Of a stretch of 64,000 nucleotides of DNA, positions 21,223-48,846 are shown in pieces. The notes beneath the pieces are model-generated. The model was not told where the DNA came from, made no database searches, and saw only the letters and a list, made by a program, of their open reading frames with translations. The stretch is from an uncultured Gammaproteobacteria bacterium (GTDB lineage Bacteria > Patescibacteriota > Microgenomatia > Levybacterales > UBA12049): the NCBI GenBank assembly GCA_964521295.1, contig CAZFRF010000001.1, positions 774,738 to 838,737 of the forward strand, written 5' to 3'. Position numbers and translations under genes: made by a program. The first letter of the stretch is position 1. Each line of letters starts with the position of its first letter.

Positions 21223-21295
21223 TGGGCCCGAAGTTTACCCGGTTGAACGCCTCATTTGCAATGAGGAGGTAGGGAGTTCGACTCTCCTCGGGTCC
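21223..21295 (+). tRNA. tRNA-Ala (anticodon UGC)
   Basis: Manual fold: acceptor gggcccg/cgggtcc with G3:U70 Ala identity pair, D-stem gttt/gaac, anticodon stem cctca/tgagg, loop 'tttgcaa' (anticodon tgc), T-arm gggag-ttcgact-ctcct; CCA not encoded. Confidence 0.85.
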
Positions 21296-21389
21296 ACAAG
21301 TGTTTTATTTATTTGCGCGTAGCGCTTTCCAGTATGCTCTGGACGCTACCCGCAAATAAGTAAGAGTTGGCTCTTTAAAAAGTGAAGAG

Positions 21390-24640
<3,251 letters not shown>

Positions 24641-24698
24641 ATTAAATTTTTCTTATCTTCACCTTTTAGAGGGCCAAATTTACTTAATTGAAATTTTT

Positions 24699-24812
24699 CC
24701 CGGTGTTTTTAGCGAAGCGGCACCACCTCTTCCCATTCCGAACAGAGAAGTGAAACGCTTCAGCGCCTACGATACTGAGCATGGGCTCGTGGACAATAGG
24801 TCAATGCCGGGA
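24699..24812 (+). rRNA. rrf: 5S ribosomal RNA
   Basis: 'ccaccucuucccauuccgaacagagaagugaaacgcuucagcgccuacgauacug' 5S loop B/C-helix III consensus; helix I cccggug/...gccggg; T-run after. Confidence 0.8.
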
Positions 24813-34498: not shown

Positions 34499-35098
34499 GT
34501 GAAAAAGATCATTTTACTTGTCTTTTCAGTCTTTATTTTAATTGCTGTAATTATTGTCTTCTTTATTTTGAATAGTAGTCCTAACAAGCTCTCTCAGGCT
34601 GAAAAAGATGCAGCTTTGGTAAATTTATTAGGCAGAAAGCCAATTTTAGATGAAAAAGATGCGCCTAAGGGTGATGTGGAGTATAAGGGTAAAGCTTTAA
34701 GTTTTAAATATCCCGCTGCAGCTAAGATGTTTGTGACTTTAGTAAATGGTAAGGAAGTTAAGGATACTTGGCATATAGATTATCTAAATTTTGATATTGA
34801 TGATCCACGTTTATCAATGCTTATTACGGTTGCTGATAGTCCAACATCTGTCACCTTGATTGAGGATTATCCAGCAGTTAAGCTTAGGATTATTCAGCCT
34901 GCAATGTTTAATAAGAGTGAAATTAAAGTTAATGGTCAAAATGGTTTAGTCTTTATTAAAACTGATAATTCAGGATTTGAAAAAACAGCTTTTGTTTATT
35001 ACAAGGCAAAGATATTTATGTTTTCGATGCAGGGAGCGGATTTAGTTTCAGCTGATCCAATTTTTCAAAGAATAATTAACTCAGTTAAGTTTAAATAA
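34499..35098 (+). CDS. hypothetical exported protein with N-terminal TM anchor
   Basis: 'MKKIILLVFSVFILIAVIIVFFIL' then 170-aa soluble domain; only plus-strand gene inside minus-strand surface locus. Confidence 0.4.
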   Translation: MKKIILLVFSVFILIAVIIVFFILNSSPNKLSQAEKDAALVNLLGRKPILDEKDAPKGDVEYKGKALSFKYPAAAKMFVTLVNGKEVKDTWHIDYLNFDIDDPRLSMLITVADSPTSVTLIEDYPAVKLRIIQPAMFNKSEIKVNGQNGLVFIKTDNSGFEKTAFVYYKAKIFMFSMQGADLVSADPIFQRIINSVKFK

Positions 35099-36142
35099 TT
35101 ATCTTCTCATTCGTTTTTTAATTTCTTTGTTGATATAGAATCTAATAATAAATCGAGCGACAAAGAAGAAAATAATTAGGCCAATAAGCAGGGTTATTAT
35201 TACTTTGTAGGGTATTACCCAAAAAGTAATGCTTTGCTCGATTGGAATATCTCTTTTACCATTATCATAAACCAATAAGAGATTGGCAGTATATTTACCA
35301 ATTCTAAAGCTTGTTAATTTATTCCAATTGATAGTCAGTTTTTCTAGTGCTTTTCCATTCTTATCTAACTTTATTTGTCCATCTTCTTTTAAGGGTTCTT
35401 TAACTATAAATCCGTCAAACCAGCTAGCAGTGAGATCTCGTCTGGTTTCTGGAATGATGTTAGCTGCTGTTTGATTAACATCTAAAATACCAATATTGTC
35501 GTTATTGCCACTGGTAATAAAAATATTTCCTCTAGGTCTAACATGAACATTGCCAGTGTTTTCAAGTTTAATATTGAAATTAATAGGTAAGTATTCATTA
35601 ATATAATTAGGTGTTGAGAAGTTAAGTATCTTGACTTCGGCTTTCGCTCCATTTTTTCTAACATTTAAAAGGATTGGTACAGCAGCCGCTCCTGTTATTT
35701 TAGTTCCAACTTGATTTAATTTATCATTGTTTTCTTGGGTAAAGTTAACTGCAAAGTAGTATCCATAGGCTGCTGTCTTAGGTACTTCAATGGAAAAGGG
35801 TACATCTGTCCATTCCAAGGGTTTTGCAACAAAGGTTTTCTCCTTAAACTTAATCCAAGACAAGCTATTGTCATCGTTTTCATCTTTAATTACTAAATCT
35901 CCATTGTCATCTCCTGTTAGTTTCTTAACTTCAAGCTTTATTGACAAAGGATTGCTTGTATTATTCCTTACTCTAATCTTGTCAGAAACAGTACTTCCAG
36001 GATTTGCAGACAAGTCAAAGAAAACAGGCGAGACTGTTACATCATAGTTAGGAGATTGTTGGGCGAAAGAATATTTAGCTCCAAATATGAAAACTAGAGT
36101 AAGGGAAATTAGAAATAATCCTGAAAATAAGGTTTTCTTCAT
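35099..36142 (-). CDS. DUF916/CscA-like cell-surface protein, paralog 2
   Basis: Signal peptide, 141 aa identical to paralog 3, C-terminal TM 'IITLLIGLIIFFFVARFIIRFYINKEIKKRMRR'. Confidence 0.55.
   Translation of the reverse strand: MKKTLFSGLFLISLTLVFIFGAKYSFAQQSPNYDVTVSPVFFDLSANPGSTVSDKIRVRNNTSNPLSIKLEVKKLTGDDNGDLVIKDENDDNSLSWIKFKEKTFVAKPLEWTDVPFSIEVPKTAAYGYYFAVNFTQENNDKLNQVGTKITGAAAVPILLNVRKNGAKAEVKILNFSTPNYINEYLPINFNIKLENTGNVHVRPRGNIFITSGNNDNIGILDVNQTAANIIPETRRDLTASWFDGFIVKEPLKEDGQIKLDKNGKALEKLTINWNKLTSFRIGKYTANLLLVYDNGKRDIPIEQSITFWVIPYKVIITLLIGLIIFFFVARFIIRFYINKEIKKRMRR
35642..36069. repeat. 428-bp perfect direct repeat, copy A (within paralog 2)
   Basis: 100% identical to 36677..37106; offset ~1036 bp; identical antisense ORFs 35790..36047 and 36827..37084 in the track are a by-product. 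Confidence 0.9.
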
Positions 36143-37185
36143 TTTTTGAATATCTTTATTATTCTCTTTATAAGGTTTTTAATTGTGTTAGCAAAGCCTA
36201 AGAAAGCAAAAACTACAAAGGCAATAGCAATTAAAACAACCTTCCAGGGAAAAACAAAGAAGCTGGTTTCGCTTTGGAAAGGAATGTCTCTGGTATTAGT
36301 ACTGATTACAAGAAGCGATGTGGCAGTATATTTACCAATTCTTAAGTCTAAGATCTTATCAAATTTAATTTTAAGTGTAGTCTGAGGTTTTCCGTTCTTA
36401 TCTAACTTTATTTGCCCATCTTCCATCTTGGGCTCTTCGGTAATAAAGGAATCATTCCAAATTGACTCAAACGCCTTTTTTGTATTTGGTAAAACTGTTC
36501 CTTGAGTACTGTTGACATCTAGAATAGCCACTTGTCTGCCTAAGAAGTCTCTAATAAAAATATTCCCTCTGGGTTTAACATGAACATTGCCAGTATTTTG
36601 AAAAACTGTAGTTAGGCTTACTGGTAAGTATTCGTAAAAACCTTTTGTTGCTGTAAAACTTTTAACATTTCCTTCGAATTTCGCTCCATTTTTTCTAACA
36701 TTTAAAAGGATTGGTACAGCAGCCGCTCCTGTTATTTTAGTTCCAACTTGATTTAATTTATCATTGTTTTCTTGGGTAAAGTTAACTGCAAAGTAGTATC
36801 CATAGGCTGCTGTCTTAGGTACTTCAATGGAAAAGGGTACATCTGTCCATTCCAAGGGTTTTGCAACAAAGGTTTTCTCCTTAAACTTAATCCAAGACAA
36901 GCTATTGTCATCGTTTTCATCTTTAATTACTAAATCTCCATTGTCATCTCCTGTTAGTTTCTTAACTTCAAGCTTTATTGACAAAGGATTGCTTGTATTA
37001 TTCCTTACTCTAATCTTGTCAGAAACAGTACTTCCAGGATTTGCAGACAAGTCAAAGAAAACAGGCGAGACTGTTACATCATAGTTAGGAGATTGTTGGG
37101 CGAAAGTAGATACTAAAGGGATAAAAACAAAAAAACCCACTAAAAGGCTTAGGGGCAGCAGTAATTTTTTTAACCTCAAATTCAT
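36139..37185 (-). CDS. DUF916/CscA-like cell-surface protein, paralog 3
   Basis: Start overlaps stop of paralog 2 (ATGA-type coupling); same mature N-terminus 'AQQSPNYDVTVSPVFFDLSANPGS...'. Confidence 0.55.
   Translation of the reverse strand: MNLRLKKLLLPLSLLVGFFVFIPLVSTFAQQSPNYDVTVSPVFFDLSANPGSTVSDKIRVRNNTSNPLSIKLEVKKLTGDDNGDLVIKDENDDNSLSWIKFKEKTFVAKPLEWTDVPFSIEVPKTAAYGYYFAVNFTQENNDKLNQVGTKITGAAAVPILLNVRKNGAKFEGNVKSFTATKGFYEYLPVSLTTVFQNTGNVHVKPRGNIFIRDFLGRQVAILDVNSTQGTVLPNTKKAFESIWNDSFITEEPKMEDGQIKLDKNGKPQTTLKIKFDKILDLRIGKYTATSLLVISTNTRDIPFQSETSFFVFPWKVVLIAIAFVVFAFLGFANTIKNLIKRIIKIFKK
36677..37106. repeat. 428-bp perfect direct repeat, copy B (within paralog 3)
   Basis: See copy A. Confidence 0.9.
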
Positions 37186-37193
37186 GATAGATC

Positions 37194-38312
37194 CTAGAAT
37201 GATCCGGCAGCAACGACTGTAAGTGTATCGCTATAGTCATTTGCTGCAGATTGGGTAGCAGCAACTGATGCTCTTACATTTAACGTAACGGTTGTTCCTG
37301 ACTGGCTTCCTCCTAGGCTTGCAACTTGTCTAAATTGTGTATCAATATGTCCAACAGTAGAAGCGCTTCCTTGATATCCTGCAGCAATTGTTGGAGTATT
37401 CGTTCCAGGTTGAGCGTCTAATCCATAACCACTAGTTGTTCCATTGGTTGTTAAGGTTCCAATTTGAGGATATGCTCCTAGACTAAAGATTTGCGCATTA
37501 GCAGTTGGGGAATATAGTCCATTCCAGTTAGTTCCTTTTACCCAAGATACAAAGCCATTCCTAGCGTTAGTTGAAACTGTTTGCGTAACAGTTCCAGATG
37601 AGATTGCAGTTGTTGAAATAGAGCCTAAGGCAACTGAGTTAGCAGATAGAGAGAAAGTCATAGTTGCGGCAACAGATGCTGTAACTGTAATTTGATCTGC
37701 TCCAGAAGATACAACTGAAGTTGCCCAGTCTAATGTATCAACGTATGGTGTTCCTCCTTGGGTTTTTAATGTACCAGTTTTATCATTTCCAGCTGAACCG
37801 ACAGTAGAGGAGGCTCCTGCAAAGTTAAAGCAATAGAAGGTTCCAGTTGATAGATCTGTGGTTGGGAAGGTAACATTAAGTCCATTAACGTTTGAAGCAG
37901 TATTAATTCCGGGCCAGGCAGTTGCTGCTCCACCACCAACTGGATCAGTTGGCAGATTAGTAGTTGTTACAGTCCAGTTAGATGCAGTGGAAGAAATGGT
38001 CCAACCTTGTGGGAATGTTATTACTGTGCCAGTCTCTGTTCCTGAAGTTGATGTTTTAAGACAAGCTGTTCCGGAAATAGCAGATCCAGTTGCTAATCTA
38101 TCAAATCTAACAAAACCTTCTGTAATAGTTGCATTGGCTTTTCCTGGAGTAAATAAAGGGTAGAGAATAAGTAAAAGTAAGGATAAGTTTAAGACTAAAC
38201 TCAAAATGTTATTCTTTTCTTTTAAATTGTTCACCTTAATATTTTGGGCAATTTTAGATAAGTCCATAAAATAATATACTTCTAGCAAATCATATTCATA
38301 AACTCTTGTCAA
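37194..38312 (-). CDS. Thr/Ser/Gly-rich secreted surface protein with conserved C-terminal motif (...NDYSDTLTVVAAGSF); probable start at internal Met (MDLSKIAQ..., ~38267)
   Basis: Signal-anchor 'ILSLVLNLSLLLLILYPLF'; N-domain paralogous to N-domain of 48874..51708 gene; C-terminus shared with 38330..39403. Confidence 0.5.
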   Translation of the reverse strand: MTRVYEYDLLEVYYFMDLSKIAQNIKVNNLKEKNNILSLVLNLSLLLLILYPLFTPGKANATITEGFVRFDRLATGSAISGTACLKTSTSGTETGTVITFPQGWTISSTASNWTVTTTNLPTDPVGGGAATAWPGINTASNVNGLNVTFPTTDLSTGTFYCFNFAGASSTVGSAGNDKTGTLKTQGGTPYVDTLDWATSVVSSGADQITVTASVAATMTFSLSANSVALGSISTTAISSGTVTQTVSTNARNGFVSWVKGTNWNGLYSPTANAQIFSLGAYPQIGTLTTNGTTSGYGLDAQPGTNTPTIAAGYQGSASTVGHIDTQFRQVASLGGSQSGTTVTLNVRASVAATQSAANDYSDTLTVVAAGSF

Positions 38313-38329: not shown

Positions 38330-39403
38330 TTAGAATGAACCCGTTGCTATAACAGTTAAAATATCACTATAGTCATTTGCTGAAGGAGTAGTGTTTTTAA
38401 CTTTGGCTTTTAATTCAAATGAAGCTTGTCCATTAGTTACTGGTGCAGAAGTGGAATCTGCTATCGGTCTTTTACTGGTGTCGATTACGCCAACATTGTC
38501 ACTTGCTCCATTATAGGGAGATAAAAGTTCCATGGGTCCGCCTGAAGTTTGAGCTACTGTTGTTCCTCTGGCTCCGTAGCCCTCAAGGGCTGCGGAAAGA
38601 TCAGTAGAGGAGCTACTGATGTTATAGTTACTTGCAGTTGTGCTTTTTAACCCATTATTTGTACCATAAAGATATATTAAGCCGCCGTTTGTAGCATTTG
38701 TGGTAATTGTGACATTTACTTTATCGGAAGACGTTGTAACAGACCCGGCTGTTAAGTTGCCTATGTTAACAGAAAATGGAGGAGAAATAAGACTAGTAGT
38801 GGTTAAGCTGAATGTAAAGCTAGGGTTTACGGTTGCCGAAGATGCAATCGGAGAATATTTACTTTGAGTATATGTTCCATTTCTGGCTGTTACCCTAGCA
38901 TAATAGGTAGTTCCTGGATAAAGTCCTATTAAGGTAAAGCCGCTTCCTGATCCCCATGCACTATATGTTTGCCAAGCAGGGCTTTGCCCCAAGGTATTAT
39001 CTGCCTGTACAAAAAACGTATCAGATGCAAAGTCAGCTGATCCCGATGATATTTGAATTGCAAAGGTTGAATCAGAAGAATTGTTAGCATTGTTTATAGT
39101 TAGACTAAGTTTGTTATAGTAATTTGAAGGGTTACTGAAAGTTGGCATTCCTGGAGTATTAGCCTGAAGAGTGTTGGTTAATCCTGCTCCCAAAATAAAA
39201 TTCGTCGACGAGGCAGAGGCAGTGTCTACTTCTCCTGATGAGCCCTGAAATAAGAAATTTTCTGAACTTGAAGTTGCAACACCTCCAGAGCCAAAACCAT
39301 ATTCAAGTAATTGATAATTTGTGCTTGTTGGTCCAGCTAGGGCAATAGGAGAAAATGCAAAATAACTTAAACTTAAGGCTAATAAAATTAATTTCTTATT
39401 CAT
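38330..39403 (-). CDS. Thr/Ser-rich secreted surface protein with same C-terminal motif (...NDYSDILTVIATGSF)
   Basis: Signal peptide 'MNKKLILLALSLSYFAFSPIALA'; fibronectin-like 'YYARVTARNGTYTQSKYSP' segment. Confidence 0.5.
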   Translation of the reverse strand: MNKKLILLALSLSYFAFSPIALAGPTSTNYQLLEYGFGSGGVATSSSENFLFQGSSGEVDTASASSTNFILGAGLTNTLQANTPGMPTFSNPSNYYNKLSLTINNANNSSDSTFAIQISSGSADFASDTFFVQADNTLGQSPAWQTYSAWGSGSGFTLIGLYPGTTYYARVTARNGTYTQSKYSPIASSATVNPSFTFSLTTTSLISPPFSVNIGNLTAGSVTTSSDKVNVTITTNATNGGLIYLYGTNNGLKSTTASNYNISSSSTDLSAALEGYGARGTTVAQTSGGPMELLSPYNGASDNVGVIDTSKRPIADSTSAPVTNGQASFELKAKVKNTTPSANDYSDILTVIATGSF

Positions 39404-39415
39404 ATTTTTAGTTTA

Positions 39416-39835
39416 TTATATTGGCAAATAGAATGCACTAAGTCCAAACAAAGGATGTAAATATTCAAACGTACAAACTTGGGGAATAGAGTTTTTGTTA
39501 CATAAAACTGCCATTTGTGACTGTGCAAATGTAAGCTCATTTGTGCGGTAATTAATTAAAGTTTTTAAGGCTGCTTTCATGTCATTTTCAGTTGGATAGA
39601 GAACATTAAGCGAACTTAAGGAAATACCTCTCAAAAAGTCCTTAGCTAGGGAAGGACTTATTTTTTCATAGATTTGTCTATATGTTTCAATTACATTTAA
39701 ATAGCCTGTGTAGACAAAGTATTTTTCCTGCGCAAAGAATCTAAAATACGCACTTGCTTGAGCGTGTTTTTCATGAGCTCTATCTACAAAAGCGTAGAGT
39801 AGTTCAGTTGTAACAAATACTTTTTTACTTGTCAT
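39416..39835 (-). CDS. hypothetical protein, possible PIN-like toxin partner
   Basis: 139 aa immediately downstream (8-nt gap) of HTH gene; N-terminal 'KVFVTTELLYAFVD' weakly PIN-like; call by context only. Confidence 0.3.
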   Translation of the reverse strand: MTSKKVFVTTELLYAFVDRAHEKHAQASAYFRFFAQEKYFVYTGYLNVIETYRQIYEKISPSLAKDFLRGISLSSLNVLYPTENDMKAALKTLINYRTNELTFAQSQMAVLCNKNSIPQVCTFEYLHPLFGLSAFYLPI

Positions 39836-46963: not shown

Positions 46964-47923
46964 ATGAGAAATGCTAAGCGTTTCTTTATTTTTTTGTTCT
47001 TAGCAAGTATTGCAGCTAACCTTTTGTTAATTGGTTGTTATTTTTACTTTCATACGGATTCTAGGCTTCCGGTAAAGAATGAAGGGACTTTTAATAATTT
47101 AGAGCAACAATTTCCTTTACTTTCCAAAAGGACATTATTTGATTTGCCTCAGGATACATTAATCAATTTCTTGGATTTAAGAAAACAAATTAGAGTCGAA
47201 ACGGAAAAGTATAAGGACGAAATCGGACTTTATTTTGAATACTTACCGACAGGTACAAATATTAATGTTAGCTCCAATACTGAGTATCATGCTGCTTCGC
47301 TTTTTAAAGTACCAGTTGTTATGGCATATTATCATTTTCAGGAAAGAACAGGAATCAAAGATAAAGATACGGTAATAAAATATTCGGAATTAGATAACGA
47401 GTTCGGAGACTTATGGAAAAAGGGAGCAGGTTATCCAATTAAACTATCTGAAGCTGTAAGATTGGCTTTGGAGAAGTCAGATAATACAGCAGCTAAAGTT
47501 GTAGCCAATAATATTACAGATCAAGATTTTGCACCTGTTTATAATGGTTTAGATATAGAATTAGAGGCGGATAATGAGGGAGCAATAGTAACTGCTAAGG
47601 GTTATTCTTCTATTTTAAAAGCTTTATATTTTGCTTCAGTTATCAATAGAGAAGATTCTCATAGGATACTGCAATATTTAGCAAATACTCCTTTTAATGA
47701 TAAATTAGCTGCACCAATACCTAAAAATGTGACAGTAGCACATAAAATCGGTAATTTTATAGATGATGATGGCGTGGATGTTTATAATGATTGTGGTATT
47801 GTTTATGTTCCCAGAAGACCATATCTTTTATGTATGTTGTCAAAATCTGATGAAGTCGTAGCTAGAGAAAGAATGCAAAAACTTTCCAAAATGGTTTATG
47901 ATTTCGTCGCTAATGCGAACTAA
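46964..47923 (+). CDS. class A beta-lactamase-fold serine hydrolase, paralog 1 (N-terminal TM)
   Basis: 'SLFK' (SxxK), 'SDNTAAK' (SDN), 'HKIGN' (KTG-like) motifs. Confidence 0.6.
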   Translation: MRNAKRFFIFLFLASIAANLLLIGCYFYFHTDSRLPVKNEGTFNNLEQQFPLLSKRTLFDLPQDTLINFLDLRKQIRVETEKYKDEIGLYFEYLPTGTNINVSSNTEYHAASLFKVPVVMAYYHFQERTGIKDKDTVIKYSELDNEFGDLWKKGAGYPIKLSEAVRLALEKSDNTAAKVVANNITDQDFAPVYNGLDIELEADNEGAIVTAKGYSSILKALYFASVINREDSHRILQYLANTPFNDKLAAPIPKNVTVAHKIGNFIDDDGVDVYNDCGIVYVPRRPYLLCMLSKSDEVVARERMQKLSKMVYDFVANAN

Positions 47924-47925
47924 AA

Positions 47926-48846
47926 ATGTTTAAAAAATTACCTCAAATTATATTTATTCTCTTAATTTTAAGCATTAGTCTTAATTTGTTTTTTGGATAT
48001 AAGCTAGCAAATGTAAATTCTAATTTTAAAGATCAAGAGATTAAATTTAATCTCTTGGCGAAAAGAATATTTCTGGAAAACTTTAGCGATATTTTAATAA
48101 ATTTTCTGGATTTAAGATCTAATTTGCGTAATCTGACTAGTCCTTGGGGGGATGATTTTGCAATGTATTTTGAATATTTGCCAACCGGTACAAATATTAA
48201 TATTAATTCTACAAACGAATATTATGTTGCTTCGCTTTTCAAATTACCTGTGGTAATGGCTTATTTTAGACATAAGGAAAAAAATGGGATTACTCGAGAT
48301 ATAACAACTAAATTAAGGCCAGATGAGATTGATCCCAGGTATGGAGAATTGTGGAAGAAGGGCGTTGGTTATGAAATAAGCTTAGATGAGGCTGCCAAAC
48401 TTGCTCTTTTAGATTCAGATAATACCGCCACTAAAGCACTTGGGCCTTATATAGATCAGTCAGATTTTGATGATGTTTATAAGGCAATTGATATAGAGTT
48501 AAAAATTGCTTCGGAAGGGGCATTACTTTCACCAAAAAACTATTCTTCAATCTTAAAAGCTTTGTATTTTAGCGCGGTGCTTAGTAAAGAGCATTCGCAA
48601 TTAATTTTAAATTATTTATCACAAACTAAGTTTGATGACAAATTAGTGGCAGGTATTCCTAATAATGTTAAAGTTGCCCATAAGATTGGAGTAATTGATG
48701 GCCAGTCTTATATGGATTGTGGTATTGTTTATATTCCCAAGAGACCATATGTTTTATGTATGATTTCTAAAAGCGATGAGCTGACTGCGCAGTCTAGGAT
48801 GCAGCAAGTATCCAAAGCAGTGTATGACTACGTTTCTTCTAGATAA
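47926..48846 (+). CDS. class A beta-lactamase-fold serine hydrolase, paralog 2
   Basis: 'SLFK', 'SDNTATK', 'HKIGV'; ~45% identical to upstream paralog. Confidence 0.6.
   Translation: MFKKLPQIIFILLILSISLNLFFGYKLANVNSNFKDQEIKFNLLAKRIFLENFSDILINFLDLRSNLRNLTSPWGDDFAMYFEYLPTGTNININSTNEYYVASLFKLPVVMAYFRHKEKNGITRDITTKLRPDEIDPRYGELWKKGVGYEISLDEAAKLALLDSDNTATKALGPYIDQSDFDDVYKAIDIELKIASEGALLSPKNYSSILKALYFSAVLSKEHSQLILNYLSQTKFDDKLVAGIPNNVKVAHKIGVIDGQSYMDCGIVYIPKRPYVLCMISKSDELTAQSRMQQVSKAVYDYVSSR

Follow-up and report, generated by a model that had tools for sequence, protein, structure and literature searches.

Domain-restricted concerted evolution of two tandem chaperone-like paralogues in a pilin-like operon of Microgenomatia

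How do two tandem genes that are only 58% identical over the rest of their length come to carry a perfect repeat covering one structural domain? The question is raised by a stretch of 64,000 nucleotides (nt) from contig CAZFRF010000001.1 of assembly GCA_964521295.1 (positions 774,738 to 838,737 of the forward strand), hereafter the window. The host is a Microgenomatia (Levybacteria-like) bacterium of the candidate phyla radiation (CPR), and the genes in question, a and b, are adjacent members of a conserved operon with pilin-like genes and encode two-domain, chaperone-like proteins. When the window is compared with itself at an offset of 1037 nt, positions 35642-36069 and 36679-37106 match over 428 nt with zero mismatches, and a repeat finder gives the same spacing. 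The common peptide is A29-K169 of gene a, 141 residues in all (AQQSPNYD...NVRKNGAK). At its 5' edge the identical DNA begins two codons before this peptide, within the signal-peptide cleavage motif (S/T-F-A-Q-Q), and at its 3' edge it ends one base past the codons for 'GAK'. In ungapped 50-nt windows, identity falls abruptly to about 22-32% toward the 5' ends of the genes, i.e. on the signal-peptide side, and to about 52-68% toward their 3' ends, with one conserved 50-nt island at 82%. An earlier note on this DNA, made from the sequence alone, had described the segment, its 141 residues and the diverged signal peptides and C-terminal halves, and it was accurate on all three. Because the rest of the pair is only 58% identical, the perfect run is not a product of chance (approximately 0.58^428, below 1e-100). 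The two genes are translationally coupled, the stop codon of gene a overlapping the start codon of gene b (ATGA).

Conversion versus duplication of the shared domain

We compared the pair with approximately 160 related loci (given here by L numbers) from scans of species-representative genomes and metagenomes, and computed codon-based nonsynonymous and synonymous divergence (dN and dS) in ten two-copy genomes; in several relatives, a database search located the two paralogues on one contig. Between the N-terminal domains (N-domains) of a and b in the same genome, dS is 0 in the window, 0.010 in L075, 0.020 in L014, 0.021 in L073 and 0.043 in L074, rising to 0.17 in L004, 0.36 in L001, 0.63 in L002 and 0.78 in L003, and is saturated in L018. 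Their identity within a genome is 84-100% in nine of the ten, with L018 the exception at 63%. The C-terminal domains (C-domains) of a and b, on the other hand, are separated in all ten genomes by a dN of about 0.5 and a dS from about 1.3 to beyond the range of the method (0.48 and 1.7, respectively, in the window). Between species, N-domains are only 58-78% identical in DNA and their synonymous divergence is saturated; the median dN is 0.246 for the N-domain and 0.24-0.27 for the C-domain. The N-domain is thus not unusually constrained, and its identity within genomes must therefore come from repeated, independent conversion and not from purifying selection.

The phylogenetic trees speak in the same terms. 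C-domains form two deep clades, a-type and b-type, each with one gene from every two-copy genome, and the signal peptides and membrane tails split along the same line. The N-domain tree is incongruent with this: in it, the two copies pair by genome. Distant relatives (L005-L010, L015 and L031) retain the a/b pair with fully diverged N-domains. The homogenised N-domain groups with the a-type N-domains of these distant relatives, which suggests that the first conversion went from a to b. The adjacency of the two genes, their equal length and their like architecture could also be explained by a recent whole-gene tandem duplication, after which the signal peptide and C-terminal half diverged very fast. 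However, the C-domains, signal peptides and tails of either type, a or b, have orthologues of their own in many species and form deep separate clades, C-domain dS is saturated whereas N-domain dS is 0, and the distant relatives already hold the pair with N-domains unlike each other, so that we regard this explanation as having practically no probability. Of the two origins that the earlier note had left side by side, a very recent conversion or a very recent duplication, the first is upheld by the contrast in dS inside and outside the tract, and the second falls with the cross-species orthologues of both halves.

A different kind of explanation would dispense with recombination and have an embedded RNA, a regulatory element or an antisense gene hold the nucleotide sequence constant. 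Both copies do contain an identical 85-residue open reading frame (ORF) on the opposite strand (35790-36047 and 36827-37084), yet this is a mechanical by-product of the repeat, no Rfam family matches the repeat segment, and the saturated synonymous divergence and 58-78% DNA identity of the segment between species mean that there is no constraint at the nucleotide level. Such a constraint is accordingly an exceedingly improbable cause, and it is highly probable that the 428-nt perfect repeat was formed by fresh gene conversion between tandem paralogues that are themselves old.

Nor is the window a singular case: domain-restricted concerted evolution recurs across a whole clade and does not go back to one event. 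Nine lineages, the window and eight others, have their own species-specific perfect tract in the corresponding place, of 455 nt (L100), 445 nt (L075), 437 nt (L093), 428 nt (window), 412 nt (L014), 364 nt (L074), 345 nt (L073), 342 nt (L004) and 317 nt (L090). That these genomes all inherited one identical sequence is contradicted by the 58-78% identity of the domain between species. In L001, L085 and L091 the region is a mosaic of identical and diverged patches, and in L002, L003, L087 and L095 it has decayed to 63-93% identity. Long tracts start at reference residues 19-29, except that the exact run in L074 starts at 46; their ends lie at residues 134-169, and none extends past residue 169, the 'GAK' hinge. 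A highly conserved DNA island (NTGNVHV...) lies approximately 30 codons downstream of this hinge. It could have anchored longer tracts, and that none is so anchored suggests, without proving it, that conversions reaching the a/b-specific start of domain 2 are selected against. In L100 (L100:742-2803), and in none of the other lineages, the 455-nt tract takes in part of the signal peptide's hydrophobic core on its upstream side. In L073-L075, GC content at third codon positions is higher in the N-domain than in the C-domain; this is not so in the window, L001, L004 or L014, and there is thus no consistent signature of biased conversion. A diversity-generating retroelement or cassette mechanism was considered and rejected, since reverse transcriptase, A-biased mismatches and further silent copies are all absent.

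We propose that RecA-type homologous recombination acts between the tandem copies and that its non-reciprocal outcomes would homogenise the N-domain, which remains identical within a genome and yet diverges between species at a normal rate. The limits of the tracts would be set by flanks too diverged for recombination and, probably, by selection against converted starts of domain 2. A radA gene lies 2 kb away, which is circumstantial only as regards recombination.

Since the repeat is known from an assembly, its reality has to be weighed as well. An assembler or polisher might have created or homogenised it from one copy or from two diverged copies: repeats that exceed the read length are hard to assemble, the exact proteins a and b occur on no other contig in the encoding-contig index, and one related contig breaks at the repeat boundary. 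That contig is L084 (Logan SRR17233806, k=31; about 87% identical over the aligned 4.2 kb), and its end at L084:5336, corresponding to window position 37078, lies 29 nt inside the repeat, precisely the point at which a true repeat has to interrupt a k=31 graph, so that the break is the expected effect of a real one. It also bears out the assembly hazard foreseen in the earlier note. Different projects have yielded independent assemblies with the same tandem arrangement, among them contigs of 608 kb, 818 kb and 936 kb, and the eight further lineages with their own species-specific tracts likewise come from different projects and assemblers. The flanks of the two copies differ by approximately 40-45%, so that a and b cannot be one duplicated consensus, and polishing cannot homogenise sequences that are 60-70% identical. 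What does count against the window's figure of 100% is that consensus polishing of the assembly could have inflated it slightly. An artefact as the source of the repeat is very unlikely.

Hybrid genes and repeat-mediated deletion

A direct repeat of this kind would also be a substrate for deletion. Unequal or intramolecular crossover between the two copies would remove the C-terminal half of a and the signal peptide of b, and the predicted product is one in-frame gene with an a-type signal peptide, the shared domain and a b-type C-terminal half. Genes of just this composition are common: 40 of the 55 unique b-type C-terminal halves belong to hybrids with the a-type signal-peptide motif (M-x-Y-G-x-K-K-L-L-L-P). 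A single hybrid gene, with this motif and the b-type tail (FWVIPYK...YINREVKKR), stands between the pilin genes and a conserved gene for a 199-residue protein in six GTDB species representatives (L011, L012, L013, L017, L021 and L022; L020 is a second contig of the metagenome-assembled genome, or MAG, of L021), and some 20 metagenome contigs likewise have a single copy in the operon. One hybrid protein, P0088, has this context in four samples (L077-L080), three of them represented by k=31 Logan contigs; such contigs could not have run through a repeated domain. L081, also a Logan contig, has the fused arrangement too; its identity to L074, a two-copy locus, is 92-93%, and both L074 copies are matched by its N-domain. 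A further hybrid was assembled twice independently, as L082 and L083. In at least several lineages, then, the hybrids are real. The comparison across loci thus shows the direct repeat as the apparent substrate of a deletion that has fused the two genes repeatedly, and the deletion hotspot postulated in the earlier note is supported.

How often the fusion has taken place is harder to say. In the tree of b-type C-domains, hybrids and two-copy forms are interspersed, and parsimony requires 11 changes (bootstrap 10-12). Two points weigh against a straightforward reading of recurrent deletion. Firstly, 11 changes compare with 13.2 for shuffled states, i.e. copy state is scattered nearly at random, which fits very frequent deletion but also a poorly resolved tree or noisy state calls from the signal-peptide motif alone. 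Secondly, assembly collapse could account for some of the single-copy hybrids on SPAdes contigs. The sequences would accordingly be compatible with many independent fusions or with a long-lived polymorphism, 11 being only a rough lower bound. The recurrent survival of fused genes suggests that a and b are partly redundant.

The reciprocal product of such a crossover would be a three-copy array, and there is none among the approximately 160 loci. The only candidate for it, L076 (protein P0017), is probably a chimeric contig, or possibly the result of inter-lineage recombination, and was not taken as evidence. L076:1-1311 (JGI 3300037213, Ga0395679_001476) reads as the C-terminal tail of an a gene, a b signal peptide and N-domain joined to an a C-terminal half, and then the b gene in full. 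Over the first 756 nt the contig is 99.3% identical to L003 and over the remainder 82%, the change coming precisely at the GAK hinge. An apparent enrichment of contig ends at the domain borders in the metagenome scan was likewise set aside, being biased by retrieval with intragenic peptide patterns.

Fold, neighbourhood and predicted role

An AlphaFold2 model of gene a, built on 30 homologues, has a mean predicted local-distance difference test score (pLDDT) of 82.5. In it, a signal-peptide helix is followed by two beta-sandwiches, the first with strands at residues 37-163 and the second at 172-311, with a short hinge between them, and by a C-terminal helix (314-346); the signal peptides of a and b were read directly from sequence. 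PF06030 (WxLIP_PGBD, formerly DUF916) matches a with 31.5 bits and b with 30.9 bits (cut-off 27.3) over residues ~26-130, inside the identical tract. The closest structural match of the chaperone-like proteins is the WxLIP crystal structure PDB 9i1y. There is no sequence match to PF11797 (DUF3324) in a or b, though the model shows a second beta-sandwich and a C-terminal helix. In fold and architecture only, as modelled, a and b are secreted, membrane-anchored, two-domain PapD-like proteins of the DUF916/WxLIP type and chaperone-like in character; that they serve as chaperones for the neighbouring pilin-like proteins would follow from this by analogy.

This fold bears directly on the proposal, made in the earlier note, that the genes encode a surface antigen subject to copy-number phase variation. 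Read more broadly, the repeat would serve a programmed variation of the cell surface, either as a reversible switch in copy number or phase or as a source of cassette-like antigenic variants. The proteins are indeed exported and membrane-anchored, one-copy and two-copy states are scattered among close relatives, and the single-copy L082 and L083 are 99.9% identical downstream to L076, where an a-type C-terminal half lies upstream of gene b. Yet fold and architecture are those of an assembly chaperone or WxLIP, not of an adhesin or antigen, and conversion makes the affected domain uniform instead of diversifying it. Moreover, the deletion loses DNA and is irreversible, the comparative data show only such irreversible fusion products, and no three-copy array has come to light among the loci, L076 looking chimeric. 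The vicinity holds no silent cassettes, reverse transcriptase, invertase or simple-sequence tract. Programmed antigenic variation is therefore improbable, and neither the antigen nor the phase variation of the earlier note is sustained; conversion and deletion in a pair of chaperone-like genes remain the preferred explanation.

The cluster has the same gene order in relatives: an HTH_17 regulator, a 139-residue protein, two pilin-like genes, a, b, the opposite-strand 199-residue gene and a third, distant paralogue, which closes the operon and keeps its position in related loci (Table 1).

Table 1. Positions in the window of the two repeat copies and of the genes in and next to the cluster
Feature	Coordinates	Strand	Description
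Repeat copy in gene a	36679..37106	-	Codons 27-169: end of the signal peptide and entire N-terminal Ig-like (DUF916) domain, to the 'GAK' hinge
Repeat copy in gene b	35642..36069	-	Covers the equivalent domain (self-comparison)
Third, distant paralogue, 302 residues	33536..34444	-	About 30% identical to a/b; PF06030 sub-threshold, 18.6 bits
199-residue gene, between gene b and the third paralogue	34499..35098	+	N-terminal hydrophobic segment; without family match
Gene b, 347 residues	35099..36142	-	Architecture as gene a; own signal peptide, C-terminal domain and membrane tail (...FWVIPYK...YINKEIKKRMRR)
Gene a, 348 residues	36139..37185	-	Signal peptide (MNLRLKKLLLPL...FA/QQ), PapD-like domain 1 (DUF916), domain 2, C-terminal membrane helix
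Pilin-like gene 2, 372-residue ORF	37194..38312	-	From a TTG start; directly upstream of a; C-terminus ...ANDYSDTLTVVAAGSF
Pilin-like gene 1, 357 residues	38330..39403	-	Signal peptide, low-confidence N-terminal segment of ~55 residues, FN3-like domain, C-terminal beta-sandwich
Conserved 139-residue gene	39416..39835	-	At the cluster head; without family match
HTH_17 DNA-binding protein, 91 residues	39843..40118	-	First cluster gene; PF12728, 41.9 bits; kept in relatives
Giant secreted protein, 2192 residues	40262..46840	+	Divergent from the cluster; no Pfam match

Several of these neighbours are retained in equivalent places. A gene for 197-200 residues corresponds to the 199-residue one in L073, L075, L077 and L081-L083, and indeed in every related locus examined; one for 139-141 residues is found in L073-L075, L077 and L084; and the orthologues of pilin-like gene 2, in the same position in relatives, encode 354-359 residues. 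Pilin-like gene 1 matches NCBIfam NF058579 (CPR_pilus_PamT) over residues 5-78 with 35 bits, far under the cut-off of 240. Its AlphaFold2 model (pLDDT 77) has a disordered N-terminal segment, and Foldseek against PDB, where no solved Pam pilin exists, returned generic FN3 tandems only and hence no Pam pilin match. The two pilin-like genes have a common conserved 3' end (37194-37249 and 38331-38385, ANDYSD[TI]LTV[VI]A[AT]GSF, 55 nt at 75%), the last residues of which are invariant in 31 homologues; this C-terminal motif could be related to assembly or to donor-strand exchange. The giant gene is found in the equivalent position in L073, L075, L077 and L084, and its 2192-residue product is a candidate for the 'tail fibre-like protein' linked to pam operons by Troman et al.

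Elsewhere in the window there is another adjacent pair of paralogues on the forward strand (46964-47923 and 47926-48846), both of the Beta-lactamase2 family (PF13354; 106 and 133 bits). Also on this strand, 21224-24812 holds tRNA-Ala, a 23S rRNA of 3245 nt (against a model of 2925 nt, with approximately 320 nt of insertions) and 5S rRNA. A 16S rRNA was not found in any part of the window, and an unlinked rRNA operon in which the 23S is expanded is therefore suggested. Many records of CPR MAGs that carry the operon (L001-L033 and other loci) are titled 'uncultured Gammaproteobacteria bacterium', 'Sulfuricella sp.' or 'Pseudomonadales', apparently mislabels.

Among the nearest known counterparts of a and b are PamC and PamD, putatively the membrane-anchored chaperones of the Pam pilus in Ca. 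Mycosynbacter amalyticus; this pilus occurs mainly in Saccharimonadia and Microgenomatia (Troman et al. 2026, bioRxiv 10.64898/2026.03.03.709456). They too begin with a signal peptide, continue with two PapD/FimC-like beta-sandwich domains and end in a transmembrane helix. As here, several paralogues occur in one pilin-containing operon without an usher; among the neighbours that we scanned there is likewise no usher-like gene, and the distribution over Microgenomatia and Saccharimonadia is common to both. In M. amalyticus, however, the genes are not adjacent, whereas the present clade has three paralogues (a, b and the distant third). The kinship is putative, and what weighs against it is that the link to the Pam pilus is indirect: none of a, b, the third paralogue or their Saccharimonadia homologues matches the PamC/PamD-type models of NCBIfam, the PamT match is partial and far under the cut-off, and the pilin model matches generic FN3 tandems only. 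Sequence searches of PDB with the two pilin-like proteins and the family profile gave noise only. The family profile of a and b recovers paired paralogues in Saccharimonadia loci; in such homologues (L048 and L057) the match to PF06030 is below threshold (E ~1e-3).

In the WxLIP proteins of Firmicutes WxL clusters (Hassan et al. 2023, PMC10599100), with their DUF916-DUF3324-transmembrane architecture, the same domain is met in a different setting: here the host is a CPR bacterium and the neighbours are pilin-like, and neither a WxL-domain protein among the scanned neighbouring proteins nor a PF11797 sequence match was detected. The Pam preprint makes no mention of paralogue homogenisation, DUF916 or WxL. 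There may thus be a DUF916-based link between CPR Pam operons and Firmicutes WxL clusters that has gone unnoticed so far. The classical chaperones PapD, FimC, CfaA and CsuC are only 9-12% identical in sequence to a and b. Chaperones of the classical chaperone-usher systems are soluble and periplasmic, whereas these are membrane-anchored, lack an usher gene and belong to a monoderm-like envelope.

In the model of gene a, the shared domain closes with a strand (residues 154-163, AAAVPILLNV) that has alternating hydrophobic residues and follows a low-confidence loop. In PapD-like, classical chaperones it is the last strand of domain 1 that complements the pilin. The Pam preprint predicts that chaperone strands insert into the open sandwich of the pilin (bioRxiv 10.64898/2026.03.03.709456), and in WxLIP it is a hairpin of the DUF916 domain that is predicted to enter the WxL partner (PMC10599100). 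Proteins a and b would accordingly offer one common client-binding module and differ in domain 2 and in the membrane anchor. A step further, one might suppose that the identity of the N-domains is kept by selection: both paralogues would need a single client-binding module that co-evolves with fast-evolving pilins, and domain 2 and the tail would direct the client to two assembly steps. We advance this as a speculation and think it rather unlikely as it stands; a neutral process limited by homology would give nearly the same pattern.

Known conversion systems and significance

RecA-dependent gene conversion between bacterial paralogues is known from tufA/tufB of Salmonella and E. coli and, as partial conversion with chimeras, from babA/babB and sabA/sabB of Helicobacter pylori. 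In these as in the present case, paralogues are closer within a genome than orthologues are between genomes and the tracts have sharp edges; as in bab and sab, only part of the gene is homogenised and the same homology also gives rise to chimeric or fused genes. Gene conversion and repeat-mediated deletion between bacterial paralogues are thus well known already, and we offer this case as a new and well-documented example. It differs from all of these precedents in that the genes are adjacent and translationally coupled, that the tract is one structural domain and that at least nine CPR lineages are involved, and from bab and sab in that the outcome is a uniform chaperone domain and not adhesin switching. 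We found no paper linking gene conversion with CPR pilus genes.

For practical work on these organisms, short-read assemblies are broken or confused at this locus, gene trees of the proteins will, if made naively, mix orthologues with paralogues, and pan-genome and neighbourhood surveys of pam operons will assign hybrid genes wrongly. If the selective proposal above were true, the polymorphism between one gene and two would be a functional switch of pilus assembly, turned off repeatedly by recombination. The hybrids would then amount to a natural domain-swap experiment showing which chaperone domain sets specificity in donor-strand systems of the CPR Pam/WxLIP type, and Pam pili would be tied to Firmicutes WxL clusters via a common DUF916 chaperone. 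Independently of that proposal, the locus is an unusually clean, clade-wide instance of domain-restricted concerted evolution in uncultivated bacteria with very small genomes, with independent tracts in at least nine lineages. It bears on the putative chaperones of a type of pilus described only in 2026, and gives clues to how their parts may be divided, with the N-terminal DUF916 domain as the shared, possibly client-binding module, and domain 2 and the anchor as the differentiated ones.

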